A DNA stretch of 64,000 bases. Source: an uncultured beta proteobacterium (lineage in GTDB: Bacteria; Pseudomonadota; Gammaproteobacteria; Burkholderiales; JACQAP01). The translations under genes were made by a program, and so were the position numbers. The stretch covers positions 213,542-277,541 of the forward strand of contig CAWBMN010000018.1 of the NCBI GenBank assembly GCA_963789945.1, written 5' to 3'. Under the pieces are notes generated by a model, which made no database searches, was not told the DNA's origin, and was given only the letters and a program-made list of their open reading frames with translations. Positions 21,251 to 47,395 of this stretch are shown here, piece after piece; position 1 is the stretch's first letter, and each line of letters opens with the position of its first letter.

Positions 21251-21773
21251 AGGGCAAGGATGAAGGATGAGGGATGAAGGATGAAGGGAAAAGCAGGGGC
21301 ACCATGCCGAGGGGTTCCGCCGAACTATTGGTTCGAACAAAGCGATTTGCCCTGAGCGTTATCAATCTTTACTCGGCGTTACCGGGCAACACGGTCTGTC
21401 AGGTGCTTGGCAAGCAGCTGTTGAGGTCCGCTACATCCGTCGGCGCGCATTACCGGGAAGCGCAGCGCGCAAAGTCAAGGCCGGACTTTATAAGCAAGGT
21501 CGAAGGAAGTCTTCAGGAACTTGACGAAACGCTCTATTGGCTGGAACTGCTGGAAGAATCCGAAACGGCCGATCGCGCATCAGTCACCCCGTTGAAGTCT
21601 GAGGCCGGGGAACTACTTGCGATATTCGTAACCATCGCGAAGTCTGCGAAAAGAACGTTTACGAAGGAGAAGTAGAGATGTGCCGGTTCGCCTTTTTCGT
21701 TTCATCCTTCATCCTTCATCCTTCATCCCTTCATCCTTGCCCCTCATCCTTCATGCTTCCGCCTTCATCCTTG
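21251..21773. mobile_element. hairpin cassette C (AAGGATG-type arms) carrying a four-helix-bundle ORF
   Basis: The left arm has aaggatg x4.7 (21256-21288). The right arm has ttcatcc repeats plus ccttcatccttgcccctcatccttcatgcttccgccttcatccttg (21701-21773). It lies between the uppP stop and the rhodanese stop. Confidence 0.85.
21274..21675 (+). CDS. four-helix-bundle protein (23S rRNA intervening-sequence protein / Avd-like family)
   Basis: QLLRSATSVGAHYREAQRAKSRPDFISKVEGSLQELDETLYWLELL matches the family signature I recall. The first codons, MKDEGK, are encoded by the repeat arm. An alternative start is ATG 21304. Confidence 0.85.
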   Translation: MKDEGKSRGTMPRGSAELLVRTKRFALSVINLYSALPGNTVCQVLGKQLLRSATSVGAHYREAQRAKSRPDFISKVEGSLQELDETLYWLELLEESETADRASVTPLKSEAGELLAIFVTIAKSAKRTFTKEK

Positions 21774-21777
21774 TTTC

Positions 21778-22230
21778 TCAGCTTTGCACCCAGGGCAACC
21801 CCGCCACGCGCCAGCCGCCAACGGCGTTGCGGTGCCCGCTTGCGTCCCTGTCGCCCTCGAATCCTTCCAGTACGTTGTAGCTCTGCGAATAACCCGCCAG
21901 GGCAGCGGCGGCGGCGGCGGCGTGCGATCTTGCGCCGCTGCGACACAGGAACATTACAAGCACCTCCTTATCAGTCTGTGCCTGGAGCTCGTTGAAGAAA
22001 TTTGGGTTCGGCCTCGATCCAGGGTAGGTTTGCCACTGGATCTGGACGCTGCCCGGGATCCGGCCGACATAATCCCACTCGGCCTGCGTGCGTACATCCA
22101 CCAGTTTTGCTCCCGGCACTTTCTGCATCAGTTCAAAGGCTTCGTGCGGAAGCAATGCACCACCATAGGGCAGGCCAAGCTTCTTGCCACGTTCAGCAGC
22201 CTTGTTCAGAATTTCTGAAATAGTGTCCAT
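21778..22230 (-). CDS. rhodanese-like sulfurtransferase domain protein
   Basis: LVDVRTQAEWDYVGRIPGS and the active-site loop CRSGARS. Confidence 0.8.
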   Translation of the reverse strand: MDTISEILNKAAERGKKLGLPYGGALLPHEAFELMQKVPGAKLVDVRTQAEWDYVGRIPGSVQIQWQTYPGSRPNPNFFNELQAQTDKEVLVMFLCRSGARSHAAAAAAALAGYSQSYNVLEGFEGDRDASGHRNAVGGWRVAGLPWVQS

Positions 22231-22465
22231 AATTGTTTCTCCAATAACTACTTAACCCTATCCCGCGGCCCTTGCGCAGGCCTTATCCAGAATCTATGCA
22301 CAAGGCTAGCAGAAAGGCTTGAATGCCCAAAAAGCTCTTGCAAAGCGCAGTGTTGTGCACTATTTTCGAGCGCAAATATCTTTCGCGCTCTTCATTGGTG
22401 CGGAAGTCTGCAAGGACATTCGGTTAACAAGTTGTGAATTAAGGATTTTTCGGGAAATTTTTGGT

Positions 22466-22481
22466 CGGCACGGTTCCTGCT
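22466..22481 (+). promoter_or_regulatory. candidate sigma-54 promoter of glnA
   Basis: cGGCACGgttcCTGCT versus the consensus TGGCACG-N4-TTGCW. The GG and GC elements are correctly spaced, about 55 nt upstream of the glnA ATG. Confidence 0.55.
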
Positions 22482-22536
22482 CAACGTGCTACTCGCTCGA
22501 TTTCCCGTGCTCTACATCCAAAACCAGGAGAAGAAA

Positions 22537-23946
22537 ATGGCGGCAGCCGATGTTTTCAAATTGCTCAAAGATAACGATGTGAAGTTCGTTGACCTGCGGT
22601 TTACCGATACCCGCGGCAAGGAACAGCACGTTACCGTCCCTGTCCGCGCTTTTGGCCCGGAGAAGTTCGAGGACGGCCATGCGTTTGACGGCTCCTCGAT
22701 AGCTGGCTGGAAGGGCATCCAGGCCTCCGACATGCTGCTCATGCCGGACCCCGACTCGGCACGGCTCGACCCGTTTTCCGACGAACCCACGCTGAACATT
22801 ACCTGCGACGTTATCGAGCCCGCAGACGGCAAGGGCTACGACCGCGATCCCCGCACCATCGCCAAGCGCGCCGAGGCGTATCTGAAGTCCACCGGAATTG
22901 GCGACACGGCTTATTTCGGTCCCGAACCCGAGTTCTTCATTTTCGACGGCGTGACCTGGAACATCGACATGTCCGGCTGCTTCGTCAAGATCTCGTCCGA
23001 GGAAGCACCCTGGTCCACGGGCAAGGAGTTCGAAGGTGGCAACATGGCTCACCGCCCGCCGGTCAAGGGGGGCTATTTCCCTGTGCCGCCTGTTGACTCG
23101 CTGCAGGATATCCGCAATGCCATGTGTCTGGCGCTGGAACAGCAGGGTGTGGAAGTGGAAGTGCATCACCACGAGGTGGCAGCCGCCGGCCAGAACGAGA
23201 TCGGCACCAAGTTCAACAGCCTGGTGAAGCGCGCGGACTGGATGCAGATCCTGAAATACACGGTCTGGAATGTCGCCCATTCCTACGGCAAGACTGCCAC
23301 TTTCATGCCGAAGCCGATCGTCGGGGACAACGGCTCCGGCATGCACGTGCACCAGTCGGTGTGGAAGGGCGGACAGAACCTGTTTGCAGGCAACGGCTAC
23401 GCCGGCTTGTCCGAACTGGCGCTTTACTACATCGGCGGCATCATCAAGCACGCCAAAGCGCTCAACGCCATCACCAACCCCGGCACCAACTCCTACAAGC
23501 GCCTGGTGCCCGGATTCGAAGCGCCCATCAACCTGGCCTATTCCGCAAAGAATCGCTCGGCGGCCTGCCGCATCCCCCACGTGGCCAGCCCGAAGGCGCG
23601 GCGCGTGGAGGTGCGCTTTCCCGACCCGACCGCGAACGCGTACCTCGCTTTCGCGGCCATGCTGATGGCGGGCCTGGATGGGATCCAGAACAAGATCCAT
23701 CCCGGCGATCCGATCGACAAGAACCTGTACGACCTGCCACCGGAGGAAGTCAAGAAGGTGCCGCATCCGTGCGCGTCGCTCGACGAGGCCCTGGAAAACC
23801 TCGACAAGGACCGGGCGTTTCTTACCAAGGGCGGCGTATTCTCCAACGACATGATCGACGCTTATATCGATCTCAAGATGGAGGAAGTCACGCGCTTCCG
23901 CATGACCACCCATCCGGTCGAATTCGACATGTACTACAGCGCGTAA
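22537..23946 (+). CDS. glnA: glutamine synthetase, type I
   Basis: [31 protein letters not shown], the adenylylation region NLYDLPPEE, and 469 aa. The ATG at 22537 lies downstream of GGAGAAG. Confidence 0.95.
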
Positions 23947-23967
23947 CACCCATTGCCACGGGAAGAA

Positions 23968-23992
23968 GGGCGGGGCCTCCCGCCCTTTTTTG
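23968..23992 (+). terminator. rho-independent terminator after glnA
   Basis: GGGCGGG-gcct-CCCGCCC stem followed by TTTTTTGTTT. Confidence 0.7.
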
Positions 23993-24122
23993 TTTGTGCC
24001 AGATCAACTCTCTGATGAGATTCGCGGATTGATAATCGAAAACGCCTGTCTTAGACTCCGGCGGGAGGCGCATCACGTGACAGGCGCCCCTCATTTCTTC
24101 GGTGATCTCACGGGTGAAATTC

Positions 24123-24602
24123 ATGCGGCTATGTCATTGGGCGCTATTGCTGGCAATCGCGTCGATCGCGGGACCTGCTCGGGCAGAGACCTGCAAGTAT
24201 GTGGACGAGGAGGGTCGCGTGATCTACTCGAACACGCCGAACAATCCTCCCAAGGGCGCAAAATTGGTGAGATGCTTCAGCGACCCCGTCGCCAAGCCGG
24301 CGCCGGCACCGCAGGAATCCAAGCCGCAGGCCGGCGCCCGGGAGGGCTTTCCCAAGGTGGATGGCGAGACGCAGAAGAAGCGCGACGACGAGCGGCGGCG
24401 CATTCTCGAAACGGAACTCGCCAACGAACAACAGCAGCTCGAGGAAGCCAGGCAGAAACTTACCGAACAGGAAGCAGTACGGACAGGCGACGAGCGCAAC
24501 TATCAGCGCTTTCTCGATCGCGTGCAGCCGTTTCGCGACACCGTAGCGAACCACGAACGCAACATCGAAGCCATCAGGCGCGAGATCTCCAACCTGAAAT
24601 AA
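24123..24602 (+). CDS. DUF4124-like secreted protein
   Basis: Signal peptide, then CKYVDEEGRVIYSNTP (the DUF4124 pattern as I recall it), and a coiled-coil C-terminus. Confidence 0.6.
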   Translation: MRLCHWALLLAIASIAGPARAETCKYVDEEGRVIYSNTPNNPPKGAKLVRCFSDPVAKPAPAPQESKPQAGAREGFPKVDGETQKKRDDERRRILETELANEQQQLEEARQKLTEQEAVRTGDERNYQRFLDRVQPFRDTVANHERNIEAIRREISNLK

Positions 24603-24734
24603 GCGGCCGCCGCCGCTGTAGCGTGCCGTCGCGCGGCATCCGCTTTCGCGTATCGCTTTTCGCGACCCGCCTTTCGACGCAATCCCCGTGGCGCGCTTCT
24701 TGCTCGATCGCAGCTGTCCGCGTGTAGCACTGCG

Positions 24735-25778
24735 ATGAAGGAACTGAGCCTTCAAGGAGTCGACGCGCTGGCGACCGCGGTCATCCTGTTGGACGAGGCA
24801 CAGGTCGTACGTTACATCAACCCGGCGGCAGAGAACCTGCTTGCGATCAGCGCCAAGAACATCGTCGGCATGCCGCTCGAGAGGGTGTTCGCCGAACCCG
24901 GCCTTCTGGTTGCCGCGGTGAACTACGCCGCCGAGAACAATTGCAGCCACACGCAGCATGAGTTGCCGCTGTCCACAACCGGCCGTGCCAGGCTCGAAGT
25001 CTCGTGCACCGTGACGCCGGTGGAGATGGCCGGGGTCGAGGGCTTTCTGATCGAGTTGAGCCCGCTGCACCAGCAACTTCGCATCGCGCGCGAGGAGCGC
25101 CTGATGGACCAGAGTACGCAGACCCGCGAGCTTATCCGCAACCTTGCGCACGAGATCAAGAATCCGCTGGGGGCGCTGCGCGGCGCGGCACAGCTCCTCG
25201 ACCGGGAACTGGAACGCCCGGCCCTTCATGAGTACACGCAGGTGATCATGAAGGAGGCGGACCGGCTGCAGTCGCTTATGGACAGGCTGCTTACGCCGCA
25301 CCGGTTGCCCCAGGTCACGCAGTTCAACGTGCACGAGGCGCTGGAGCGCGTGCGCAGTCTGCTTCTCGCGGAGTTTCCGGACGGAATCGAGGTCCGGCGA
25401 GATTACGATGTCAGCCTGCCGCCGTTGACCGCGGATCGCGAGCAGATCATCCAGTCGCTGCTCAACGTGGCGCGCAATGCCGCACAGGCCATTCAGGGCA
25501 AGGGCACGATCATCCTGCGCACGCGCGTGGCACGCCGGGCGACGCTGGCGAAGAAGATGTATCGACTGGCGTTGCTGGTGCAGATCGTCGACGACGGCCC
25601 GGGCGTGCCATTGGAACTGAAGGACAGGATCTTTTTCCCACTGGTAAGCGGGCGTGAGGGCGGCCATGGGGTTGGACTTACGATTGCACAGACCTTCGTG
25701 ACCCAGCACCACGGCACCATCGAACTGGAAAGCGAGCCGGGCAGGACCTGCTTCAGCATCCTGCTTCCGATTGAATAG
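24735..25778 (+). CDS. ntrB: nitrogen regulation sensor histidine kinase NtrB
   Basis: PAS N-terminus, H-box LAHEIKNPLGALRGAAQLL, and the ATPase motifs DDGPGVP and GHGVGL. Confidence 0.9.
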   Translation: MKELSLQGVDALATAVILLDEAQVVRYINPAAENLLAISAKNIVGMPLERVFAEPGLLVAAVNYAAENNCSHTQHELPLSTTGRARLEVSCTVTPVEMAGVEGFLIELSPLHQQLRIAREERLMDQSTQTRELIRNLAHEIKNPLGALRGAAQLLDRELERPALHEYTQVIMKEADRLQSLMDRLLTPHRLPQVTQFNVHEALERVRSLLLAEFPDGIEVRRDYDVSLPPLTADREQIIQSLLNVARNAAQAIQGKGTIILRTRVARRATLAKKMYRLALLVQIVDDGPGVPLELKDRIFFPLVSGREGGHGVGLTIAQTFVTQHHGTIELESEPGRTCFSILLPIE

Positions 25779-26288
25779 GCAAGAGCAAGGATGAAGGCGG
25801 AAGGATGAAGGATGAAGTAAAGCAGAACGTCAAGCGCGATCTGGTTGGACGCACCAGACGATTCGTGCTTGAAGTGATCATGTTTTACTCGACTCTCCCA
25901 AGCACCACGGTGTGCCAGGTGTTGGGGAGGCAGTTGTTGAGATCAGCGACTTCGGTTGGTGCCCAATACCGTGAGGCCCAACGAGCCAAATCCGGCGCCG
26001 ATTTCGTTAACAAGATTGAAGGCGCACTTCAAGAACTCGATGAAACGGGATATTGGCTGGAGTTACTCGAAGAGTCGGGAAATGCGGATGTAATTGCAGT
26101 TAAACGACTGCAGCTAGAGGACCAGGAATTGCTAAGAATCTTTGTCACAATCGCAAAGTCTTCAAAGAAACAATCGAGAAAGAGGTACCACGTGAAATAT
26201 CACAAGCCTTCATCCTTGCCCCTCATCCTTCATCCTTCCGCCTTCATCCTTGCCCTTCATCCTCCATCCTTCCGCCTTCATCCTTGCC
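25779..26288. mobile_element. hairpin cassette D (AAGGATG-type arms) carrying a four-helix-bundle ORF, inserted between ntrB and ntrC
   Basis: The left arm, gcaagagcaaggatgaaggcggaaggatgaaggatgaag (25779-25817), starts at the first nt after the ntrB stop. The right arm (26207-26288) is a duplicated ccttcatccttgcc...ccttccgccttcatccttgcc block ending 1 nt before the ntrC ATG. Confidence 0.85.
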
Positions 26289-26293
26289 TATGA
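25805..26293 (+). CDS. four-helix-bundle protein (23S-IVS/Avd-like) with an arm-encoded C-terminal tail
   Basis: QLLRSATSVGAQYREAQRAKSGADFVNKIEGALQELDETGYWLELL; I judge it roughly 60 percent identical to the 21274 copy by eye. There is no stop at the position homologous to the 21675 stop. It reads through the right arm ([28 protein letters not shown]), and its TGA overlaps the ntrC ATG (ATGA at 26290-26293). Confidence 0.8.
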   Translation: MKDEVKQNVKRDLVGRTRRFVLEVIMFYSTLPSTTVCQVLGRQLLRSATSVGAQYREAQRAKSGADFVNKIEGALQELDETGYWLELLEESGNADVIAVKRLQLEDQELLRIFVTIAKSSKKQSRKRYHVKYHKPSSLPLILHPSAFILALHPPSFRLHPCL

Positions 26294-27690
26294 AACCTGT
26301 CTGGATCATCGACGACGATCGCTCGATTCGCTGGGTGTTCGAGAAGGCGCTCACGCGGGAGAACATTGCTTTCAAGGTCTTCGCGTCCGCGCAGGAGGCA
26401 CTGGAGGCGCTGTCGGCGTCGACGCCGCAGGTGGTGGTGAGCGACATTCGAATGCCGGGCGGTTCCGGCCTCGAATTGCTGCAGAAGCTGAAGGAGAAGT
26501 TGCCCAACCTGCCTGTCATCATCATGACCGCGTACTCGGACCTCGAGAGTGCGGTGGCGGCATTCCAGGGCGGCGCATTCGAATACCTGCCCAAGCCTTT
26601 CGACGTGGACCAGGCCGTGGACTTGATTCGCCGGGCGATGGAAGAAAGCCTGCGTCAGGGCGATGTCGCCGAGGCGGCGGAGGAAGCACCCGAAATCCTT
26701 GGCCAGGCGCAGTCCATGCAGGAGGTGTTCCGTGCGATCGGACGGCTCACGCAATCGCACGCGACCGTTCTGATCAACGGCGAGTCCGGCACCGGCAAGG
26801 AACTGGTGGCGCGCGCGCTGCACCGTCACAGTCCGCGCGGGCCCAAACCGTTCATCGCCATCAATACGGCGGCAATTCCCAAGGATCTGCTCGAGTCGGA
26901 GTTGTTCGGACACGAACGCGGCGCTTTTACCGGCGCGCAGGCGATGCGGCGAGGCCGGTTCGAACAGGCCGAAGGCGGCACGCTGTTTCTGGACGAGATC
27001 GGCGACATGCCGCCCGACCTTCAGACGCGCCTGTTGAGGGTGCTGTCGGACGGCCAGTTCTACCGTGTCGGGGGGCATCAGCCGATCAAGGCCAATGTGC
27101 GCATCATCGCGGCTACGCACCAGGACCTGGAAAGCCGGGTCAAGCAGGGCATGTTCCGGGAGGATCTTTTCCACCGGTTGAATGTGATCCGCTTGCGCCT
27201 TCCGGCACTGCGCGAACGCCGCGAGGACATTCCGCTGCTTGCCAGATACTTTATGCAGAAAAGCGCGCGCGAACTGGGCGTGGAAACGAAGAAGTTGTCC
27301 GACGGAGCGATGAAATACCTCTCTGCGCTGGACTTCCCGGGCAATGTGCGCCAGCTGGAGAACCTTTGTCACTGGCTGACGGTGATGGCGCCGGGAATGA
27401 ACGTTGATGTGAAGGACCTGCCTCCGGAGTTGCGTGAAGAAGCCCATGTCAGCTCGGCGGAGAACTGGGTTACGGCATTGGAGAGGGAGGCGGAATCGCT
27501 GCTGAAACGCGGCGACAGCGCGATCCTGGACGAACTTTCCCGCCAGTTCGAGCGCGCGTTGATAACCAAGGCGCTTGCGCACACCGGCGGCCGCAGGATC
27601 GAAGCCTCGTTGCTGTTGGGCATGGGCCGCAACACGCTGACACGCAAGATCCAGGAACTCGGTCTGGAAAAGGACGATCGGCCGGATTGA
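26290..27690 (+). CDS. ntrC: sigma-54-dependent response regulator NtrC
   Basis: [10 protein letters not shown] receiver domain, the AAA+ motifs GESGTGKE and GAFTGA, and a C-terminal Fis-type HTH. Confidence 0.95.
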
Positions 27691-27716
27691 AGCCGGGAAT
27701 TTCGCTACGAAATGCA

Positions 27717-27973
27717 ACTCCTCACCACGAAGGCACGAAGCTATCGCACACGAAAGTAAAGTCTTACACAAAGCCACGAAGAAGAGCGACAAGAAAGCGA
27801 CTCGTGTAAGAAGCTCACACTTGGCGAATGTCGGCCATCAAAGTCGAACGTGGGCGGATCAAAGGATCACGCAACTCACCAAGCTTCGATCCCCAATTGG
27901 TTTGAGAATTCGTTCTTCTTCGTGTTTCTTCGTGTCCTTCGTGCCTTCGTGGTGAGCCTTTCGTGAGATAGCG
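27717..27973. repeat. hairpin cassette E (CACGAAG-type arms)
   Basis: Left arm ctcaccacgaaggcacgaag (27721-40) plus degenerate units extending to about 27790. Right arm ttcttcttcgtgtttcttcgtgtccttcgtgccttcgtggtgag (27913-56). It lies between the convergent ntrC and xth ends. Confidence 0.85.
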
Positions 27974-27979
27974 TCGTAT

Positions 27980-28748
27980 TCAGGAAGCAATCTCGGCGAC
28001 CACCGGTGCGTGATCGGAGGGCCGTTCCAGCTTGCGCATGTCCACGTGAATGCTGCTCGAACGGCAGCGCGATGCGGGTTCGGCCGACAGAAGAATGTGA
28101 TCGATGCGCAACCCCAGATTGCGCTTGAAGGCATTCATTCGGTAGTCCCACCAGGAGTATGCCTTCTCGGCCTGGTCGAACAACCTGAAGCTGTCCTTCA
28201 GACCGTGCCCGAGCAGTCGCTGAAACGCGGCACGCTCGGGCGCACTGACCAGTACCTGTCCTTCCCAGACTTTCGGATCGTGGACGTCGCGGTCTTCCGG
28301 CGCGATGTTGAAGTCGCCGAGCACCGCCAGCCTGGGATGCCTCTGCAGTTCCGTGTTTAGCCAGCGGTCGAATGCCGCCAGCCAGTCGAGTTTGTAGCGA
28401 TACTTGTCGGATTCCAGGCTCTGGCCGTTGGGCACGTACGCACATACCAGCCGCATTTCTCCCACGGTGGCAGACAGTACTCGCTTCTGCTGGTCTGGAT
28501 AGCCCCGGGATGCCGGCCTCGACCGCCTGCGGGGCATCACGAGTCAGGATCGCCACGCCGTTGTAGGTCTTTTGCCCGGAGAATACGGCGCGGTAGCCGG
28601 CCTGCGCGATTGCGTCCACCGGGAAGTTCGCATCCTCGACCTTGGTTTCCTGCAGACAAACCGCGTCGGGACGCTCGCGCGCGAGCCACTCGAGGAGATG
28701 CGGAAGGCGGACCTTCAGCGAGTTGACATTCCAGGCGGCAAGCTTCAA
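27980..28748 (-). pseudogene. xth: exodeoxyribonuclease III with a broken reading frame
   Basis: The N-terminal 82 aa (MKLAAWNVNSLKVRLPHLLEWL..CLQETKV) are in the frame of ORF 27876..28748. The rest ([26 protein letters not shown]...[11 protein letters not shown]) is in the frame of ORF 27980..28540. The two join at the C4G3 run 28503-28509, and removing 1 nt restores [11 protein letters not shown]. Confidence 0.8.
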
Positions 28749-28754
28749 GCGTCG

Positions 28755-29330: not shown

Positions 29331-29358
29331 CGGGGCCTACTCCTTTTCCGTCCCGGCA

Positions 29359-31389: not shown

Positions 31390-31473
31390 GAGAGCGGCGA
31401 CTCGTGACTGGAAACTGGTGAACGGCGGACTCGTGCCGATTATTCTGTTAGCTGGCGATGCGATGCCCCGATT

Positions 31474-32774: not shown

Positions 32775-32973
32775 TCTCACCACGAAGACACGAAGGCACG
32801 AAGAAAAACATTCAAAGTGAATGACTGAACATCGATTCTCGCCAGCACACACTGTCCAAATATATCGGCCGCTTGAGATCAACATCTCCGCATTTGAAGT
32901 TCACTGCACGCCAAAAAGTCAGGTTGGCTAATTTTTTTCGCTCTTCTTCGTGCCTTCGTGTCTTCGTGGTAAG
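32775..32973. repeat. hairpin cassette F (CACGAAG-type arms)
   Basis: Left arm tctcaccacgaagacacgaaggcacgaagaaaaa (32775-32808). Right arm ttcttcgtgccttcgtgtcttcgtggtaag (32944-32973). It sits in the pyrB / pyrC' junction. Confidence 0.9.
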
Positions 32974-37118: not shown

Positions 37119-37600
37119 TTTCCGTGCTCCGCGAAATTCCGACGGGTCCGGAGAGCCGGTTGCGGTTGGCGCCTTTGGGAATGCGGTTGTTGAGCCTCGC
37201 GTACGAGGGCGTGCTGCTGTTCGGCATCCTGTTTGTTGCGTCCTACCTGTTCGTCGGCCTTGCACGCGATGCACAGACCGGCATGCCACGTCTGGTGTTC
37301 CAGGTCTACGTGCTCGCGGTGTGCGGCGCCTACTTCGTGTTCTGCTGGGTGCGCAGCGGACAGACCCTGCCGATGAAGACCTGGCGCATTCGACTGGTTA
37401 CGCAGCAGGGCAAGCCGCTGGCGGTCGGCCGGGCCTTCCAGCGTTATCTGCTGGCCGTGCCAAGCGTACTTTCGGGGATCGGCGTGCTCTGGGCCCTGGT
37501 GGATCGCGACCGCCTATTCCTGCACGACCGGCTGGCAAAGACGCGCATCGTGCGCGTTGACGAACCAAGGGCCGAGGGACGAGGGGCGAGGGACGAGTAA
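37115..37600 (+). CDS. RDD family membrane protein
   Basis: LSLAYEGVLLFGILF, GQTLPMKTWRIRLV, and LHDRLAKTRIV. The proposed TTG start at 37115 overlaps the upstream stop (TTGA). The last codons, PRAEGRGARDE, are encoded by cassette P's arm. Confidence 0.7.
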   Translation: MISVLREIPTGPESRLRLAPLGMRLLSLAYEGVLLFGILFVASYLFVGLARDAQTGMPRLVFQVYVLAVCGAYFVFCWVRSGQTLPMKTWRIRLVTQQGKPLAVGRAFQRYLLAVPSVLSGIGVLWALVDRDRLFLHDRLAKTRIVRVDEPRAEGRGARDE

Positions 37601-37659
37601 AAAGCAAGCACGGTTCCGTTTTGGACTTGACTCGAACCTCGTACCTCGGTCCTCGGACC
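37569..37659. repeat. mini hairpin cassette P (GGNNCGA-type arms)
   Basis: Left arm gggccgagggacgaggggcgagggacgag (37569-97), a 33-nt centre, and right arm ctcgaacctcgtacctcggtcctcggacc (37631-59). The CGAG and GG blocks pair, and the middle nt of each unit mismatches. Confidence 0.7.
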
Positions 37660-38735
37660 TATCTCTTCTCCACCTTCCACATCATCACCATCGCAGCAAC
37701 CAGAAACAACAGGGTGGGAAAGATCGCGCTGAAAAGCGGTGGCCATGCATTGAGCAGGCCGAGGTGGCCAAACAGCCGGTTGGCCAGATGGAAGCCCAGA
37801 CCCAGCATGATGCCGGTGAAGATCTTGCCGCTCACCCCGCCCTCGCGCACCTGGAAGTAGGCGAACGGCAGCGCCAGCACCATCATGACCAGGACCGCGA
37901 ACGGGTAGATGATCTTCGACCAAAGCACGATCTCATAGCGCGAGGTTTCCTGCCGGTTCTCGCTCAGGTGTTCAATGTAGGAATACAGGTCCCAGAGCGA
38001 CATCTGTTCCGGCACAACCATCAGCACATTCAGGATCGGAGGACTCAACACCGAACGCCAGTAGGCTTCGGGAATGCGGCTCACCGTTGTCCGGTTCTCC
38101 TCGAAACGGGTTTGCACGACATCCTTGAGCCGCCACAGATTCTCGCGCTGATACTCGCCGGATTTAGCGAGGCTGATCGCGCGCAGCCGGTAGTCGGAAT
38201 CGAACTCGTAGATCTTGACCTCGTGGATCACGGTTTCCGGCATGACGCGTGCGACGTTGATGAAGTTGGTATCGTCCTTCACCCACAGCCCGGACCGGAA
38301 CGCCTGTGCGATCACGCTGCTGCCGGTTGCCTTGAGCCGCAGCTTCTGCGCCGCCTGCTCGCTGGCGGGTGCCACGAACTCGCCGATCAGGAAGGTCATA
38401 AGCGACAGCACCAGGCCGATCTGGACCAGCGTCAGCGCCATGCTCTTTATCGATACGCCCGACACGCGCATCACCGTGTACTCGGAGTGCGCGACCATTT
38501 GCGCAAGCGCGAACAGCGTGCCGATGAGCGCGGCTACCGGCAGAATTTCGTATGCCCGTCCCGGCAGGCTCAACACCACATAGATGGCCGCAAGAGACAG
38601 GCGATATCCGCCCCTCCCGAGATCCCCCAGTTCCTGGATGAAATCGAAAAACCCGAACAGCAACAGCAACGCGCCGAATACCAGCGCGGTGCTCCAGAAA
38701 ATCTGCACGGCGACGTAACGGCGGATGGTTTTCAC
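37659..38735 (-). CDS. lptG: LPS export ABC transporter permease LptG
   Basis: 358 aa with the YjgP/YjgQ family pattern (MKTIRRYVA..IF..T....). Confidence 0.9.
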   Translation of the reverse strand: MKTIRRYVAVQIFWSTALVFGALLLLFGFFDFIQELGDLGRGGYRLSLAAIYVVLSLPGRAYEILPVAALIGTLFALAQMVAHSEYTVMRVSGVSIKSMALTLVQIGLVLSLMTFLIGEFVAPASEQAAQKLRLKATGSSVIAQAFRSGLWVKDDTNFINVARVMPETVIHEVKIYEFDSDYRLRAISLAKSGEYQRENLWRLKDVVQTRFEENRTTVSRIPEAYWRSVLSPPILNVLMVVPEQMSLWDLYSYIEHLSENRQETSRYEIVLWSKIIYPFAVLVMMVLALPFAYFQVREGGVSGKIFTGIMLGLGFHLANRLFGHLGLLNAWPPLFSAIFPTLLFLVAAMVMMWKVEKR

Positions 38736-39821: not shown

Positions 39822-39900
39822 CTGCTACTTTGACTTTTCGGCGAGGTGAAAGAGATAATGCTAAGTTATTGAATGAAAAACGGCATTGGAGGAGTTCGCA

Positions 39901-41391: not shown

Positions 41392-41401
41392 GAGTCAAAT
41401 G

Positions 41402-41652
41402 CTTACCACGAAGACACGAAGGACACGAAGAAGCACGAAGAAGGGCGAAATGTAAATGACTCGTCAAATGCACAATTGTCGACCTTTGGTTGTTTCGGGT
41501 GTGACGACGACAAACCCAAATATTGGAGGCATGCGATAATCCGGGGTTGGCTGAGAGTACGCTTGCTCATCGTTGACCATCAAATATTCTCTTCGCTTTT
41601 CTTCGTGTCCTTCGTGTCTTCGTGGTGAGCATTCTGGTTTTTTCGTGGTGAG
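41402..41652. repeat. hairpin cassette G (CACGAAG-type arms)
   Basis: Left arm cttaccacgaagacacgaaggacacgaagaagcacgaagaagg (41402-44). Right arm ttctcttcgcttttcttcgtgtccttcgtgtcttcgtggtgag (41587-41629), plus a second terminus ttttttcgtggtgag (41638-52). It sits in the pepA / holC junction. Confidence 0.9.
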
Positions 41653-41670
41653 ATTTTGATTTCTACGGCA

Positions 41671-42102
41671 ATGATGACTGAGGTCCTGTTTTATACGCAC
41701 GTAGACGACAAGCTGCAGACCGCCTGCGCGCTCACTTCCAAGGCGCTCGCGCGCGGAATGCGGGTGATGCTGTTGACACGGGACACCGGCATGACCGACA
41801 GACTCTCGAGAATGCTGTGGAGCACGCCCTCCATCGGTTTCGTGCCGCATTGCCGCTGCGATCACCGGCTTGCACCGCTCACCCCGGTGATCGTCGATCA
41901 CCGGGGTGAACCGCTGATCCACGATCAGGTGCTCGTGAACTTGTGTGATGACACGCCGCCGTTCTTCAGCCGGTTCCAGCGCCTGGCCGAGATCGTCAGC
42001 ACCGAGGACCAGGATCGCGAGGCCGCGCGCAGCCGCTTTCGCTTCTATCGCGATCGGGGTTACGAAATTGTCACCCACCAACTGGGCGGCACCCAGTCCT
42101 GA
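41671..42102 (+). CDS. holC: DNA polymerase III subunit chi
   Basis: MMTEVLFYTHVDDKLQTACAL..KA...G.RV... Confidence 0.85.
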   Translation: MMTEVLFYTHVDDKLQTACALTSKALARGMRVMLLTRDTGMTDRLSRMLWSTPSIGFVPHCRCDHRLAPLTPVIVDHRGEPLIHDQVLVNLCDDTPPFFSRFQRLAEIVSTEDQDREAARSRFRFYRDRGYEIVTHQLGGTQS

Positions 42103-42557
42103 TGACGGAAGACCCCGGGAACTTCCTGCCCCCTGGCGCCGAAGACGAGGACGACGTTTTCGGCAAACTTGACCAGCTTCTGAACAAGCACCGTCCGGGG
42201 ACAGCCGAGCCCGGTGCATTGCCGGTGCCCGAGCTCACCGATTCTCTGCACCGCACCGACGCGCCGGTTCCCGGAAACATTCCCACCCTGGTAGACAAGG
42301 TGAGCGGTCCGGCGCGCGAGCCGTCCCTGCCGCAGCGCACCGGCACAATGCAATCCGAAAACTCCAAGGCAGTACTCGAAGCCGGGATCAATTTGCGCCT
42401 AGCGGTAAGACTCGAGACGGAGCGTGCACGGCTGCTCGAACAGATCGGAAACGACCCGGAGCGCGCGCAGGCATTCGACCAACTGATCACGGCGCTGAAG
42501 CGCTCGCTTCCCGAAATTGTTCGATCCGTTCTCTCCGACGAACCGTCTCGGGACTAG
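42102..42557 (+). CDS. hypothetical protein
   Basis: 151-aa ORF whose ATG overlaps the holC stop. The composition is acidic and low-complexity, and I recognise no motif. Confidence 0.5.
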   Translation: MTEDPGNFLPPGAEDEDDVFGKLDQLLNKHRPGTAEPGALPVPELTDSLHRTDAPVPGNIPTLVDKVSGPAREPSLPQRTGTMQSENSKAVLEAGINLRLAVRLETERARLLEQIGNDPERAQAFDQLITALKRSLPEIVRSVLSDEPSRD

Positions 42558-42566
42558 GGAAGCTCA

Positions 42567-43166
42567 CTACAAGGTCTGCGCCCCTTCGTACACAAAGGCG
42601 TTGAAATTGATGTTTATCCTTGGTGCGTTGTCTTTTGGGGTGTTGCCGGCATGCAAAAGCCCCCCGTCAAACACCACCAACCGTCCTTTTTTTGGCGTCA
42701 CTCGTGTCTTGACCGTCAGCGGAGCGCTTTGCCCAAACCTTTGGTCAAATATCAGGGTATCCCCTGTACTGTCATTGACGTAGTAAATAGCCGAGATCAG
42801 GGGTTCCTTGATCTCCGTAAAGTCCACATGCGGCATTCCATGAGCGTTCGGATTGTCAGTCTGGGCATAGACGCACAGATTCATCTTTATCCGGATCATC
42901 TGTTTGATCGTGTACGGGATGGCTGTCATTACCGGCAGGATAACCCCGAACAACTTCGACACCGGCTGGTTATCTTCCCAGATCGTATGCGTAAATTGCT
43001 GCACATCCAGCGAATCGGGGGTAACCGGGAAAATCTGCCGAGTACCTTCAGCATAAGTTGCCCGTTTTTGTCGAAACCAATTGAACTTGTCGCCAAGTGC
43101 AATGCCCTCCAGCATGTCTTGAATGCTTGTTGGCACAGCCTGATCAATGACTATTACATCTTTCAT
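42567..43166 (-). CDS. 2OG-Fe(II) oxygenase-like protein
   Basis: HGMPHVDF (HxD), a distal LLHAG His, and RININF Arg fit the 2-His-1-carboxylate plus 2OG-binding pattern. The gene is visibly AT-richer than its flanks. Confidence 0.6.
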   Translation of the reverse strand: MKDVIVIDQAVPTSIQDMLEGIALGDKFNWFRQKRATYAEGTRQIFPVTPDSLDVQQFTHTIWEDNQPVSKLFGVILPVMTAIPYTIKQMIRIKMNLCVYAQTDNPNAHGMPHVDFTEIKEPLISAIYYVNDSTGDTLIFDQRFGQSAPLTVKTRVTPKKGRLVVFDGGLLHAGNTPKDNAPRININFNAFVYEGAQTL

Positions 43167-43361
43167 CAGTAGTGTGCCCTTGCCTCTGGCTCAAACGGTG
43201 TATGGCGGATAGGAATTCTGACCATATCACGTGTCTCGGGGGGGCTCAAGGCGAGGCATGAAGTTGGGCTTTGGTGGCGAAGGTGAAGGCGCCTGGTGAT
43301 TTTCCGACAGTCTGAGCTGCTTGCCGCCTGCGCGTGGGCAGGCGAGCAGCCGCTCGGGGTT

Positions 43362-43930
43362 CTAGGGAAGCTCTGATCAAGTTCCGCGACGCGCGTTGCG
43401 CCAGGTGCGGATGACTGCTAGGGACGCCGGAGCGTGGAAGAGGGGCCCCTGGGGATCTGACCGCGTAGGCGTCCCGACGAGTGCACATGATCGGCGTGCG
43501 ATGCGAGCGACTCCGGGTCGCATCCCCGGGCCAAGGCCAGCGGAACCTGCTCCGCCTACGCGCTCGCGCTCCGCAGATGCGGCTGAAGCCCCAGCAAGGA
43601 GCGTAACAACGCAGGCGCCGCACCTGGCGCAACCCAATGACATTTCGACTCTTTAGAGGGACCGGGCGATTCGGGCCGCGTGCCGCAGCGCAGAACAGGG
43701 GCCCCTCCGGGATGTGACCGCGGAGGCACGCACAAGCACGCGCACATTCGGCACGATGCATCACGCTCTGGGTCGCATCCAAGCACACGACGCTTGGAAC
43801 CTGCTCCGCCCTGAGCGGGCGCTCTGCGTCGGCTCCTCCTTATGTAGGCCGGCTACACGGCGTCCTAGCAGTCATCCGCGACCTGGTCGCCTCGATCGCG
43901 CGTCGCGGAACTTGATCAGAGCTTCCCTAG
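43362..43930. mobile_element. non-autonomous element (MITE) with IS5-family-like termini
   Basis: Terminal inverted repeats of about 67-72 nt: 43362-43428 (ctagGGAAGCTCTGATCAAGTTCCGCGACGCGCG...GGATGACTGCTAGG) versus 43859-43930. CTAG is present at both outer ends. No transposase ORF lies inside. There is an internal imperfect direct repeat of about 155 nt. Confidence 0.5.
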
Positions 43931-43996
43931 GTACGTTGCGATATTGCCAGTGGCCGCTACGCTATAATTCGCCGCTCCCGCAATTGCGCTCAGCAA

Positions 43997-46820
43997 ATGG
44001 AACTCGCCAAGAGCTTCGAACCCAGGGACATTGAAGTCCGCTGGTATCCGGTCTGGGAATCACGCGGTTACTTCTCGACCCGCCCGGACCACGATCGCCC
44101 CACCTACTGCATTCAACTGCCGCCGCCGAACGTCACCGGCACGCTGCACATGGGACACGCGTTCCAGCAGACGCTGATGGACGCACTGATCCGCTACCAC
44201 CGCATGCGCGGTCTTAACACCAATTGGGTGGTCGGGACCGATCACGCTGGCATTGCCACCCAGATCGTGGTCGAGCGCCAGTTGGAGTTGGAGGGCAAGA
44301 CCCGCCACGATCTGGGCCGGGAAGAGTTCATGGAACGTGTTTGGGAGTGGAAGAGCCAGTCCGGCGCAACCATCATCCGGCAGATGCGCCGGCTCGGCGC
44401 CTCCGCGAACTGGGACTACGCCGACACGGAAGGCCAGCGCGCCGGCTACTTCACCATGGACGCGAAAATGTCGCACGCGGTGATCGAGGTTTTTGTGCGC
44501 CTGCACGAGCAGGGCTTGATCTATCGGGGAAAGCGGCTGGTGAACTGGGACCCGGTTCTGGGAACGGCGGTCTCCGACCTGGAAGTGGACAGCGAAGAGG
44601 AAGACGGCCGGATCTGGGAGATCCGCTATCCGCTGGCTGATGGATCAGGCAGCCTGGTGGTCGCCACCACCCGTCCGGAAACGATGCTCGGCGACGTGGC
44701 CGTGGCGGTGCACCCGGATGACGAGCGGTACAAGAAACTGGTTGGCAAACAACTGCGGCTGCCGCTCACCGACAGAACCATACCGGTTATCGCGGACGGG
44801 TACGTGGACCCCGAGTTCGGCACAGGCTGCGTCAAGATCACGCCCGCCCATGATTTCAACGACTATGCGATGGGACAGCGACATGGTTTGTCGCCGATTG
44901 GCGTGATGACGCTGGACGCGAGAATGAACGACAACGCTCCGGCACCCTACCGCGGGCTCGACCGCTTCGAAGCGCGCAAGCGCGTGATCGTGGACCTGAA
45001 CAAGCAGGAACTGCTGGTCTCGGAGAAGCCGCACAAACTCAAGGTGCCGCGATCGGGACGCACCAGCGCGATCGTCGAACCGATGCTGACCGACCAGTGG
45101 TTCGTGAAAATGGAAGGGCTGGCCCGGCACGGCCTGGACGCGGTCGCCGAGGGCAGCATCAAGTTTTTTCCTGACCACTGGACCACGACTTATAACCACT
45201 GGCTGGAGAATATCCAGGATTGGTGCATTTCACGCCAGCTCTGGTGGGGCCACCAGATCCCGGCCTGGTACGACGATGCCGGCAACGTATATGTAGGCCG
45301 GAGCGAGGCAGAGATTCGGGAGAAGTACGCCTCTCTCCTCTCTCCTCACTCCTCACTGCGTCGCGACAGCGACGTCCTCGACACCTGGTTCTCCTCGGCG
45401 TTGGTGCCGTTCACGTCGCTCGGCTGGCCGGAGAAAACCAAGGACCTGGACGTCTTTCTTCCCTCCTCGGTGCTGGTCACCGGGTTCGACATCATTTTTT
45501 TCTGGGTCGCGCGCATGGTCATGATGACCCTGCACTTCACCGGCAAAGTGCCGTTTCGACACGTCTATATCAACGCACTCGTGCGCGATGCCGACGGCCA
45601 GAAAATGTCGAAGTCGAAGGGAAACACGCTCGACCCGCTCGACCTGATCGACGGCATCTCGATCGAAGACTTGGTGGCCAAATCGACAGTGGGATTGCTG
45701 CGTGCCGAGCACAGGCAGAAGATCGAAAAGTACGTGCGCAGAAACTATCCGAACGGCATTCCGGCATTCGGCGCCGACGCACTCCGCTTCACCTTTACCT
45801 CGCTCGCCACATTCGCGCGAACGCTCAATTTCGATCTGAGCCGCTGCGAGGGCTACCGCAACTTCTGCAACAAACTGTGGAACGCCAGCCGTTTCGTGCT
45901 GATGAATTGCGAGGGCAAGGACTGCGGGCTCGATGAGCATGCCCCGGAGGATTGCGGCCCCGGGAGTTACCTCGACTTTTCCCAGGCCGACCGCTGGATC
46001 GTCAGCCAGTTGCAGCGCACCGAGGCAGAAGTCGGTAAAGGCTTTGCCGACTACCGCTTCGACAATGTCGCCAGCGCCATCTACAGGTTCGTCTGGGACG
46101 AGTACTGCGACTGGTACCTCGAGATCGCGAAAGTGCAGTTGCTGAATCGGCGCCGAGGCGCAGCAGCGCGCCACGCGGCGCACGCTGCTGCGGGTGCTGG
46201 AAGCCACGTTGCGGCTCGCACACCCGGTCATCCCGTTCATCACCGAGGAACTTTGGCAGAATGTTGCGCCGCTGGCCGGCCGCCATCCGGGCGGCGAGGC
46301 CTCGATCATGGTTCAATCCTATCCGGTATCGCAGCCCGAGCGTATCGACACAAAGGCGGAAGCCTGGGTCGCCCAGCTCAAATCATTGGTCGAGGCCTGC
46401 CGCGCGTTGCGCGGCGAAATGTCGCTTTCCCCGGCGCAGCGGGTGCCGTTGGTCGCCGCCGGGAACGCGGCCATGTTGCGCGAGTTCGCCCCCTGCCTGA
46501 AGGTGCTGGCGAAGCTTTCTGACGTCGAAGTCGTCGACGCGCTGGCACCGACAACGAATGCCGGCGCCGCGCCGGTGCGGATCGTCGGCGACTTTCGTCT
46601 GATGCTGAAGATCGAGGTAGACGTCGCTGCCGAGCGAGAGCGCCTACACAAAGAGATTGCGCGGCTCGAAAGCGAAATCGCCAAAGCTAGCAGCAAGCTC
46701 GCCAACGCCGGTTTCGTGGAGCGCGCACCGGCAAACGTCGTCGCCCAGGAAAAAGAGCGGTTGTCCGGCTTCACCGGCACGCTGGAGAAAATCAGGGCGC
46801 AACTCGCCACGCTTACCTGA
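43997..46820 (+). pseudogene. valS: valine--tRNA ligase with a broken reading frame near the C-terminal domain
   Basis: The HIGH (TGTLHMGHA) and KMSKS motifs are present. After ...[11 protein letters not shown] the track ORF turns into Arg/Ala nonsense. The true continuation, [36 protein letters not shown]...coiled coil, is in ORF 46194..46820. The frames switch at about 46148. Confidence 0.85.
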
Positions 46821-46838
46821 GCCACTCCAAAAACAACA

Positions 46839-47378
46839 CTCACCACGAAGGCACGAAGAACACGAAGAAACACGAAGAAGAACAGGAATCCTTAAATTAG
46901 AGGCCAACCGTTGAACGTGTCTTCACCGCTGTCGAGGGAAATCGAGGAATTGTCTCGAAATCTGGTCGATTCTGCGTTTAAAGTCCACCAGACTCTTGGC
47001 CCAGGCTTGCTTGAATCGGTCTACGAAGCCTGCCTGTGTGTAGAACTTAAGAAACGAGGCATCAGATACAAGTCTCAGGCACCGATACCTCTCGTCTATG
47101 AAGGTGTCTCTATCGAAGCAGGATTGCGTCTCGATCTGCTTGTCGAGGGCAGCATTGTTCTCGAAATCAAATCAGTCGAGAGGCTGTTGCCGGTTCATCA
47201 AAGTCAGTTGTTGACGTACTTGAAACTTGCCGATTTGCACTTGGGCTTGCTCATCAATTTCAATGTTGCCATGTTCAAGCAAGGCGTGCGACGGATCATT
47301 CGCTGAGCAATGCCATCGCTCTTCGTTCTCTTTGCTTTTCTTCGTGTTTCTTCGTGTTCTTCGTGCCTTCGTGGTGAG
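46839..47378. mobile_element. hairpin cassette H (CACGAAG-type arms) carrying an intact GxxExxY ORF
   Basis: The left arm 46839-46880 and right arm 47337-47378 are complementary at 41 of 42 positions by hand count. It lies between the valS stop and the MFS start. Confidence 0.9.
46911..47306 (+). CDS. GxxExxY protein (PD-(D/E)XK nuclease-like)
   Basis: FKVHQTLGPGLLESVYEACL contains GxxExxY. RLDLLVEGSIVLEIKSV fits D...ExK. QLLTYLKLADLHLGLLINF is the family C-terminus. The gene is AT-richer than its surroundings. Confidence 0.85.
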   Translation: MNVSSPLSREIEELSRNLVDSAFKVHQTLGPGLLESVYEACLCVELKKRGIRYKSQAPIPLVYEGVSIEAGLRLDLLVEGSIVLEIKSVERLLPVHQSQLLTYLKLADLHLGLLINFNVAMFKQGVRRIIR

Positions 47379-47395
47379 AATTTTGGTTTTCGCGC

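Follow-up and report, generated by a model that had tools for sequence, protein, structure and literature searches.

Small single-gene cassettes are inherited, relocated and exchanged together with the repeat arrays (arms) that flank them, and it is because arms and cargo behave as one unit that the type of arm tracks the type of cargo. Three of these cassettes, C, D and H, lie in a window of 64 kb, by which we mean the whole stretch of DNA that was analysed. The explanation that we prefer, with a probability of about 0.55 for the whole of it, is that C, D and H are selfish cassettes akin to the ORF-bearing intervening sequences (IVS) of 23S rRNA.

Armed cassettes in the window

Cassettes C and D carry a four-helix-bundle (4HB) protein between AAGGATG-type arms, and cassette H carries a GxxExxY protein between CACGAAG arms:

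21248..21288, + strand: cassette C left arm, an AAGGATG/AGGGATG heptamer array with GGGCAAGG just before it
21274..21675, + strand: cassette C cargo, 4HB protein, by profile matches
21700..21773, + strand: cassette C right arm, a CATCCTT array that includes a 46-nt block (21728-21773)
25781..25816, + strand: cassette D left arm, AAGGATG AAGGCGG AAGGATG AAGGATG
25805..26293, + strand: cassette D cargo, 4HB protein, by profile matches, 65% identical to that of C
26203..26287, + strand: cassette D right arm, with its copy of the 46-nt block at 26207-26252
46829..46879, + strand: cassette H left arm, A-rich at its outer end, then TCAC-CACGAAG-G-CACGAAG-AA-CACGAAG-AAA-CACGAAG-AA
46911..47306, + strand: cassette H cargo, GxxExxY PD-(D/E)XK protein of 131 aa, by profile matches
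47338..47390, + strand: cassette H right arm, the reverse complement of the left arm at 49/53 aligned positions

Both 4HB profiles score above their cut-offs for C and D, PF05635 (cut-off 33.8) with 61.4 bits (E 1e-16) and 56.7 bits (E 3e-15) and TIGR02436 (cut-off 24) with 79.4 bits (E 2e-22) and 74.2 bits (E 9e-21), respectively, and the C protein matches PDB entry 2RLD (E 3e-20). All 10 AAGGATG doublets of the window fall at the borders of C and D, where 0.03 would be expected in the window, and the block common to the two right arms is 46 nt long with one mismatch. A sequence-only reading of this DNA had assigned the family, placed the arms and described a common block of about 45 nt, and is borne out on all three. 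The arms align as inverted repeats at 34/35 (C) and 38/41 (D) positions, giving arm-arm stems of 41-48 bp in the minimum-free-energy fold. The genes beside the two cassettes encode BacA, a rhodanese, a PAS-HisKA kinase (NtrB-like) and a sigma-54 response regulator (NtrC-like). Cassette C has two candidate start codons, ATG 21274 within the arm and ATG 21304. The left arm of D begins 3 nt past the NtrB-like kinase stop codon; the ORF of D starts within that arm and runs on through the right arm, and its stop codon (TGA) shares nucleotides with the start codon (ATG) of the NtrC-like gene, as ATGA at 26290-26293.

The GxxExxY call for H, made in the same reading, is confirmed by PF13366 (144.4 bits, E 2.5e-42, cut-off 22) and TIGR04256 (144.8 bits, E 1.3e-42, cut-off 35). 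The protein carries both the GxxExxY and the D...ExK motif, and eight residues are invariant across 44 GxxExxY homologues (G32, E35, Y38, D75, E85, K87, Q99 and Y103). Its predicted structure (pLDDT 72) gave no significant match in a PDB search, and the PD-(D/E)XK assignment comes from profiles and motifs. The spacers in the left arm of H measure 1, 2 and 3 nt; CACGAAG does not form a heptamer repeat, since successive copies follow at intervals of 8-10 nt and a search for exact 7-nt tandems gave 0 matches. Searches of C, D and H against PADLOC (anti-phage defence) and PHROGs (phage) profiles returned 0 matches.

The CACGAAG motif flanks 10 further short cassettes in the 64-kb window, none with an ORF, and three ORF-less or repeat-bearing regions have other arms:

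27726..27951: G27, ORF-less, CACGAAG arms, the left one degenerate
32781..32968: G32, ORF-less, CACGAAG arms, taking up the whole spacer between amidohydrolase and aspartate carbamoyltransferase genes
41407..41624: G41, ORF-less, CACGAAG arms
48657..48805: G48, ORF-less, CACGAAG arms
50463..50683: G50, ORF-less, CACGAAG arms
51532..51710: G51, ORF-less, CACGAAG arms
52833..53036: G52, ORF-less, CACGAAG arms
57178..57331: G57, ORF-less, CACGAAG arms, interior in common with G58
58553..58700: G58, half cassette with left arm and G57-like interior, lacking the right arm
60148..60294: G60, ORF-less, CACGAAG arms
20199..20367: X20, ORF-less, with the arm variant GACGCAAAG/CTTTGCGTC
37568..37660: X37, ORF-less mini-cassette with heptamer arms AGGGACG / CCTCGGN
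14042..14397: X14, (GGTGCGA)x25 opposite GAGCACC-type units

In every window cassette the left and right arms pair in the minimum-free-energy fold (stems of 23-48 bp, z-scores -2 to -10). The short ORF-less CACGAAG cassettes probably represent the same arm family minus the gene. No GxxExxY or 4HB remnant is recognisable in the 10 of them, and the interiors of the ORF-less cassettes resemble neither those of GxxExxY cassettes (z < 3) nor, generally, each other.

Arm type and cargo type among relatives

From the window, the sequence-only reading had proposed that each arm type goes with one cargo type. This was tabulated for some 100 relatives, non-redundant and drawn from many phyla, with arms scored as F-type (AAGGATG-type) or G-type (CAC-NN-AG). 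Starting from the cargo, 64 4HB genes have F-type arms and none G-type, and 17 GxxExxY genes have G-type arms and none F-type; cross-pairings thus number 0 among 81 cargo-bearing cassettes (Fisher 8e-18, in a sample that is phylogenetically non-independent), and the background for arms is 0.5-1.3% of random positions. The same pairing emerges blind from the arms: F-type arms led to 55 4HB and 0 GxxExxY genes and G-type arms to 9 GxxExxY and 0 4HB genes, so that 0 of 64 are crossed. Three genomes, that of the window, Bernardetia and Treponema, contain both families, each with its own arms. Some GxxExxY loci are exceptions: L015, L018 and L122 have no clear arms, and in L016, L119 and L121 the flanking repeats are direct and not inverted.

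What is conserved differs between the families. A 7-nt period is seen in 147/150 4HB flanks as opposed to 0/45 GxxExxY flanks. The tie of AAGGATG itself to 4HB cargo stands within one 4HB subfamily and fails beyond it, where distant 4HB genes use other heptamers (AATCCCC, AATTCGT, GTCGGAG, TTTTAGA, GGATGAA); with units that differ so widely between subfamilies, there is no single recognition motif for the 4HB family. All nine GxxExxY unit types, on the other hand, match CAC-NN-AG.

Co-inheritance of arms and cargo would by itself also yield perfect tracking. Under this alternative the arms are a generic stem to which the proteins are unrelated, any inverted repeat would do, and tracking arises because each cassette lineage has one ancestor and its arrays are homogenised by slippage. 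The free variation of 4HB units across subfamilies, a sample retrieved entirely by homology, and arm mismatch spectra with neither an RNA-specific nor a protein-specific signature are all as this account would have it. Slippage is nevertheless not expected to produce the spacers of GxxExxY arms, which tend to grow inwards (commonly 1, 2 and 3 nt), and the 7-nt period of the 4HB arms is strict despite very different unit sequences. Moreover, GxxExxY units keep C-A-C and A-G across phyla and down to 31% protein identity, while positions 4-5 take at least six combinations. We regard co-inheritance alone as rather unlikely to be the full account. An arm architecture that is cargo-specific and conserved across phyla suggests the hypothesis that each protein may recognise its own arms, and lends indirect support to the plausible idea, put forward in the sequence-only reading, that each protein would act on its own hairpin.

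Movement, transcription and a proposed mechanism

The cassettes change places as units. L028 contains a cassette 90% identical to C of the window in unrelated flanks. L028 and L029 in turn have flanks that are 97-98% identical, between which lies a C-type cassette in forward orientation in one and a D-type cassette, inverted, in the other, with the breakpoints of homology inside the arms. Indels between compared loci likewise end at arms, and X20 is missing at the syntenic site of L025 and L026. One cassette type at different sites, different cassettes at one site and breakpoints in arms directly support the earlier suggestion that each protein is mobilised or retained with its hairpin. Exchange takes place by recombination inside the arms and can thus join only cassettes with like arms. 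At the polymorphic sites compared, in comparisons that were not clean, no target-site duplication was visible and no clean empty site was resolved.

Both cargo genes are under purifying selection (dN/dS ~0.15 and 0.21), and the cassettes lie in a particular setting. The upstream neighbour is co-oriented with the cargo in 46/48 (4HB) and 12/16 (GxxExxY) cases, and at plasmid loci all annotated flanking genes share the cargo's strand. Operon, tRNA or SRP-RNA spacers are frequent locations, with tRNA and SRP RNA genes of like strand 7-10 nt away from some cassettes of related loci, and both families occur within housekeeping, restriction-modification and CRISPR-associated (cas) operons as well as stable-RNA clusters. 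Placement and orientation bias together point to transcription by host read-through.

In the preferred, IVS-like reading, each cassette is one small ORF with a short-unit array on either side, the second inverted relative to the first, and follows a co-oriented gene in a transcribed spacer, such as an operon gap or a tRNA/SRP-RNA gap, or lies in an rRNA helix in the known relatives. Once transcribed by read-through, the two arms would base-pair as a stem of 25-50 bp. If IVS are a guide, RNase III would cleave it, so that the cargo RNA is released and the host RNAs on either side stay usable, and each protein, alone or in a complex, may also recognise its own arms. Mismatches in the arms are not biased, on the sense strand, to pairs compatible with G:U (17 vs 22; 15 vs 20), so RNA pairing is not distinguishable from a DNA-level inverted repeat by this measure.

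A mobile element acting on DNA has also to be weighed, in which GxxExxY would be a transposase- or homing-like nuclease that cuts CAC-NN-AG arms, and the ORF-less cassettes would be non-autonomous copies or empty targets for gene copying by repair. The invariant D...ExK and QxxxY-type residues of a gene under purifying selection would suit such an enzyme, as would an arm motif conserved across phyla, replacement of cassettes at a fixed site with breakpoints in arms, and the abundance of ORF-less copies with the resident arm variant (10 in the 64 kb of the window, ~15 in 20 kb of L001). However, replacement was observed for 4HB cassettes, which lack a nuclease gene; the polymorphic sites are without target-site duplication; ORF-less interiors are unrelated to H and to each other; no structural relative was found to hint at a substrate; and the orientation bias relative to transcription is not predicted. 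We consider this explanation distinctly unlikely.

It is very improbable that the elements are instead beneficial to the host, with arms that stabilise mRNA in the manner of REPs, terminate transcription or act as insulators, and with small ORFs that are incidental passengers. Cassettes do take up whole intergenic spacers of housekeeping operons, and Xanthomonas has paired convergent heptamer arrays, reported as of unknown function (PMC4692102). Yet the cargo is kept by purifying selection and goes with one particular class of arm, and cassettes show presence/absence and replacement between near-identical genomes and patchy occurrence over syntenic sites.

A more far-reaching proposal, which we put forward tentatively and think rather doubtful, is that minimal mobile cassettes come in two classes not recognised before, in which GxxExxY and 4HB proteins, respectively, would be the factors dedicated to recognising the arms. 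The GxxExxY nuclease would cut graded-spacing CAC-NN-AG arrays so that the cassette is copied into other armed sites, a 4HB oligomer would read 7-nt-periodic arrays, and both the excess of intergenic heptamer repeats in bacteria, which has long lacked an explanation (STRR, Xanthomonas, Geobacter), and ORF-bearing rRNA IVS would be traces of such cassettes.

To our knowledge, the GxxExxY and 4HB families are widespread and multi-copy and have no known function. Conserved, family-specific arms that move with the gene turn two families of 'hypothetical protein' into definable genetic elements, and provide candidate substrates for proteins currently without any. They extend a 30-year-old puzzle, that of rRNA IVS, beyond rRNA, and offer a specific source for some of the heptamer repeats that lie between genes. 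Gene-plus-arm elements would also explain why assemblies of such genomes break at cassette loci.

Comparison with known systems

Avd is a nucleic-acid-binding four-helix-bundle oligomer. As the accessory protein of DGRs it belongs to PF05635, like the C and D proteins, and this common family is the sole basis of the analogy drawn in the sequence-only reading; DGRs, which combine a reverse transcriptase with a template/variable repeat pair, have no counterpart to the cassette arms, and a scan of the immediate neighbours of C and D found nothing DGR-like among them. REP/REPIN-RAYT systems resemble the cassettes in their numerous intergenic inverted doublets, which a single-copy protein is thought to mobilise in trans, but cassette arms are unit arrays and not REP palindromes, and tblastn with the L001 Y1_Tnp protein found no Y1 transposase in the window. 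The L001 Y1_Tnp gene has 27-nt repeats of its own.

The short CACGAAG cassettes (150-250 bp) are like MITEs in being ORF-less, intergenic and of high copy number with terminal inverted repeats. They differ in that each end carries an array of 3-5 short units in place of one terminal inverted repeat, in that their interiors are mutually unrelated and not derived from the GxxExxY cassette, with no target-site duplication found, and in that the candidate partner is a 131-aa PD-(D/E)XK protein and not a known transposase. Intergenic tandem heptamers are known as cyanobacterial STRR/GGGGA(T/C)T, Xanthomonas GGGAATC convergent pairs and Geobacter metallireducens heptanucleotide elements, and often form convergent pairs able to fold into stem-loops; unlike the cassette arms, they are tied to no cargo gene in the accessible parts of these papers (PMC4692102, PMC2700814). 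In Planktothrix, arrays of AATCCCC (= GGGGATT) stand on both sides of the 4HB gene.

The closest known relative of the cassettes is the 23S rRNA IVS (Leptospira, Coxiella burnetii, Brucella, Xanthomonas-type S23p). IVS are inserted in helix 25 or 45 of the 23S rRNA gene, whereas the cassettes lie between protein-coding genes in the window, where an Rfam scan found one tRNA only and no rRNA, and next to tRNA and SRP-RNA genes in related loci. The cassettes also include many ORF-less copies and, in GxxExxY, another cargo family whose arms form a class of their own. Besides an S23p ORF, the IVS of Coxiella has tandem heptamers (GACAGAT) at its 5' end, and its terminal inverted repeats pair in a stem of 28 bp, which RNase III cuts in vitro; excision by RNase III is documented only for the IVS of Coxiella, Leptospira and Salmonella (PMC4990558). 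IVS are regarded as selfish elements, and C and D share with them both the identical cargo family (S23p = PF05635) and an ORF between stem-forming terminal inverted repeats.

Inverted-array cassettes in the window

The G+C content of the window is about 60%, and its genes are ordinary housekeeping ones. At least 16 places carry facing inverted arrays of a short unit (the arms) around 40–500 bp, and only three of these array pairs, those of cassettes C, D and H, enclose a recognisable gene:

21274–21675: C cargo ORF, four-helix bundle (4HB); PF05635 E 1e-16, TIGR02436 E 2e-22
25805–26293: D cargo ORF, 4HB; PF05635 E 3e-15, TIGR02436 E 9e-21
46911–47306: H cargo ORF, GxxExxY protein; PF13366 E 2.5e-42, TIGR04256 E 1.3e-42

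The C and D proteins are 65% identical, and the C protein matches PDB 2RLD. From the sequence alone, AAGGATG arms had been assigned to the 4HB cassettes and CACGAAG arms to the GxxExxY cassette; profile matches and doublet positions agree with this, all ten matches to AAGGATG-type doublets in the window (0.03 expected) lying at the borders of C and D. The right-arm block of about 45 nt described as common to these two was recovered as 46 nt with one mismatch (21728–21773 in C, 26207–26252 in D). CACGAAG motifs do flank H, as well as ten short ORF-less cassettes; as a correction, they do not form a heptamer tandem repeat, the motif recurring every 8–10 nt. All window cassettes have the potential to form a stem, with arm–arm pairing of 23–48 bp in the minimum-free-energy fold (z-scores −2 to −10).

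Two further cassettes carry other arm variants:

14042–14397: X14, (GGTGCGA)x25 against GAGCACC/GCGCACC-type units about 150 bp away
37568–37660: X37, 93-bp mini-cassette, AGGGACG/AGGGGCG heptamers against facing CCTCGGN units

The arms of X14 are of a third type and enclose no recognisable cargo. Its (GGTGCGA)x25 array starts immediately after a 415-aa ORF, and a duplicated CCTTTCTCTGAACATCGGGCACTGCGCACTCAG segment is enclosed between its arrays. X37 sits where two ORFs of a crude ORF list end, and overlaps them in part.

Among the short cassettes, G57 (57178–57331) and G58 (58553–58700, right arm missing) are the unique case of a common interior, of about 100 nt. A derivation of the short CACGAAG cassettes from H-like cassettes by internal deletion was considered and is not supported: in local alignments with four GxxExxY cassettes, their interiors gave scores no higher than those of shuffled sequences, and tblastn found no cargo remnants in them. 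That the ORF-less cassettes cannot be recognised as deletion derivatives of H fits awkwardly with a simple MITE model. Strand orientation was given no meaning for ORF-less cassettes, because an inverted repeat is identical on both strands. CACGAAG-armed cassettes are crowded in one contig of a relative (L001), at about 15 in 20 kb. At 16959–17884 it also has a Y1_Tnp (PF01797) gene adjoining three copies of a 27-nt repeat, resembling a RAYT/REP pair; this repeat is unrelated to the CACGAAG arms of the contig. No RAYT was found in the window, and PADLOC and PHROGs profile searches gave no hits.

Arm type and cargo type among relatives

Following the suggestion of the sequence-only reading, arm unit was tabulated against cargo HMM in collected loci of relatives. 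The H protein as query gave 20 loci from GTDB genomes (31–79% identity, many phyla) and the C protein 80 metagenome loci (58–94% identity); a third set comprised four contigs from a related population of betaproteobacteria, with three GxxExxY genes. Cargo was called with HMMs built from the homologue lists. Two templates were used, G-type (left CAC..AG, right CT..GTG) and F-type (A[AG]GG[AC][TG][AG] and its complement), and a cassette was scored when one of them matched two or more times on each side.

Arm type by cargo family, non-redundant loci
GxxExxY cargo: G-type 17, F-type 0, neither 10
4HB cargo: G-type 0, F-type 64, neither 11

At random positions the background was 0.5% for G-type and 1.3% for F-type. 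A reverse census, starting blind from TRF-detected inverted arrays and then scoring the interior, gave 55 4HB, no GxxExxY and five empty interiors for F-type arms, and nine GxxExxY, no 4HB and 15 empty interiors for G-type arms. Nominal Fisher tests returned 8e-18 (cargo to arms) and 4e-11 (arms to cargo). Both values exaggerate the strength of the evidence, as the cassettes share ancestry and were collected through homology. The cases matching neither template are mostly variant units of the same design (AAGTATG, AACGATG and AAAGATG for 4HB; CATTAAG, ACGCNAAG and CACGGAT for GxxExxY). Three genomes, those of the window, a Bernardetia plasmid and Treponema saccharophilum pTS1, contain both families, and in each of them the arms differ between the two. 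The proposal that arm type tracks cargo type is thus confirmed, with no cross-pairing in either direction of counting, and greatly extended beyond the three cases of the window.

The two arm classes differ in what they conserve. Nine unit types accompany GxxExxY genes (CACGAAG, CACGGAG, CACAAAG, CACCAAG, CACTAAG, CACAGAG, CATTAAG, CACGGAA and AACGAAG), in which C-A-C is kept at positions 1–3 and A-G at 6–7, with positions 4–5 free. Both arms of a GxxExxY cassette always use the same variant. One such cassette (L001, 13027–13640) has CACGGAG outer and CACGAAG inner units mirrored near-exactly in its other arm, so the two arms are kept alike unit by unit. From the outer end inward, successive spacers in GxxExxY arms are mostly 1, 2 and 3 nt long (23/35, 24/35 and 14/15), a pattern present in unrelated lineages and not a prediction of replication slippage. 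The period is 6 or 8–11 nt, mostly 8–10; a 7-nt period was seen in none of 45 GxxExxY flanks against 147 of 150 4HB flanks.

The 4HB unit set AAGGATG/AGGGATG/AAGGCGG is kept down to about 53% protein identity, a Chloroflexota plasmid included. Distant 4HB relatives (34–59% identity) on plasmids of cyanobacteria, Bacteroidota, Bacillota and Spirochaetota have very different units (AATCCCC and AATCGTA, AATTCGT, GTCGGAG, TTTTAGA, AATTAGG, GCTCTCC). Across these differing 4HB units the 7-nt period is the constant feature. An in-frame ATG within an arm unit, found in 31 of 59 4HB cassettes, was discounted as start-codon evidence because a 7-nt period places ATG in every frame. Distant plasmid GxxExxY genes (Bacteroides, Bernardetia, Sphingomonas, Gemmatirosa, Treponema) mostly keep C[AG]C-NN-AG; three others have unclear arms or direct repeats. 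At L016, L119 and L121, the repeats on the two sides of the GxxExxY gene, of right-arm type or other, are in direct instead of inverted orientation, which may stem from adjacent cassettes or from arm–arm recombination.

Exchange of cassettes and their genomic setting

The sequence-only reading had also raised the possibility that cargo is mobilised or retained with its arms, and four comparisons speak for it. From one arm to the other (498 bp), the cassette of one relative (L028) is 90% identical to C, but its flanks are unrelated to those of the C site. The flanks of L028 and of another locus, L029, are 97–98% identical, yet the same site holds a C-type cassette in L028 and a D-type one (87% identical to D) in opposite orientation in L029. 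Flank homology is lost 30–50 nt inside the arms; this is cassette replacement through recombination within the arms, and since each arm is an inverted copy of the other, exchange can yield either orientation. Contig L002 has a short G-type cassette that L001 and L003 lack, delimited by a duplicated right arm, and X20 has no counterpart in the syntenic spacer of L025 and L026. Exchange via arms can join only like-armed cassettes, which by itself would keep arm class and cargo class coupled.

20199–20367: X20, arms GACGCAAAG / CTTTGCGTC; compared with L025 1209–1223 and with L026

The X20 arms are close to those of a Verrucomicrobial GxxExxY gene (L007). In L025 and L026 a 20-nt GC hairpin stands in place of X20 and about 100 nt of additional spacer; the site is too diverged for cassette ends or a target-site duplication to be defined.

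Both cargo families are under purifying selection, with median dN/dS of 0.15 for 4HB (28 pairs with unsaturated dS) and 0.21 for GxxExxY (four such pairs). Eight GxxExxY residues (G32, E35, Y38, D75, E85, K87, Q99 and Y103) are invariant in 44 homologues. Orientation is biased: by a crude ORF-based call the upstream neighbour is co-oriented with the cargo in 46 of 48 4HB and 12 of 16 GxxExxY cases, and at the plasmid loci every annotated flanking gene is on the cargo's strand. Plasmid insertion points include hsdS|hsdR, helicase|methylase, upstream of cas1, RND adaptor|permease, fabD|fabG and radA|downstream gene. Several metagenome 4HB cassettes have a tRNA gene 7–10 nt to one side and an SRP RNA or another tRNA to the other, all on one strand:

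L033, L037, L038, L042, L044, L053, L069, L090, L095, L096, L097: 4HB in tRNA/tRNA or tRNA/SRP RNA spacers, same strand
L033: tRNA end 2908, cassette 2917–3387, SRP RNA start 3395

This stable-RNA-spacer niche parallels that of the intervening sequences (IVS) of rRNA. Given co-orientation and the operon, tRNA and SRP RNA spacers, the cassettes therefore lie in transcribed spacers, and to judge from this placement they appear to depend on host read-through.

D occupies the whole gap between NtrB-like and NtrC-like genes. Its ORF extends across the right arm to a TGA that overlaps the NtrC-like ATG (ATGA; 26280–26293). Because of this overlap, and since no Shine-Dalgarno sequence was found upstream of that ATG, translation of the NtrC-like gene may be coupled to the D ORF. 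In a Sphingomonas locus (L116), the annotated GxxExxY ORF exceeds the usual length by about 15 codons and stops 2 nt before the fabG start.

4HB genes also lie within or beside defence-type operons at L105, L106, L107, L108 and L112 (upstream of cas1; helicase|4HB|N6-methylase; hsdS|4HB|hsdR; DUF1156|4HB|HEPN), in agreement with a survey that noted 23S_rRNA_IVP genes inside cas operons (PMC3936711).

Relation to rRNA intervening sequences and heptamer arrays

By homology with IVS, the arms would pair within a read-through transcript to form an RNase III substrate, and cutting of the stem would make insertion in operon, tRNA or rRNA spacers tolerable. Sense-wobble and antisense-wobble counts among arm–arm mismatches show no asymmetry, and since a sense-strand bias is lacking, RNA-level and DNA-level pairing are not separable; duplex energies of whole flanks are uninformative, as long flanks pair non-specifically. 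Each protein may recognise its own arms, a hypothesis suggested by the conservation across phyla of the CAC-NN-AG motif, the graded spacing and the 7-nt period.

None of the papers searched, drawn from a part of the journals, links arm class to cargo family or describes GxxExxY arms. Intergenic heptamer arrays whose function is not known include the Xanthomonas convergent pairs, the STRR-like GGGGA(T/C)T arrays of Nostocales and the heptanucleotide elements of Geobacter metallireducens; the available portions of their descriptions make no link to a cargo gene (PMC4692102, PMC2700814). Cyanobacterial 4HB genes with inverted heptamer arrays occur on Planktothrix (L106) and Nostoc (L109, L110) plasmids. 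Their arm units include AATCCCC (= GGGGATT), an STRR-like unit whose enrichment in Nostocales has been reported, and some STRR arrays may be arms of 4HB cassettes.

The 23S rRNA IVS of Coxiella burnetii carries an ORF for S23p (PF05635) and is excised by RNase III in vitro; those of Leptospira and others behave similarly (PMC4990558). C and D have the same architecture as the Coxiella IVS but lie outside rRNA. Together with H, they are selfish cassettes of the IVS type located away from rRNA, among which a second cargo family occurs and each arm class goes with its own cargo.
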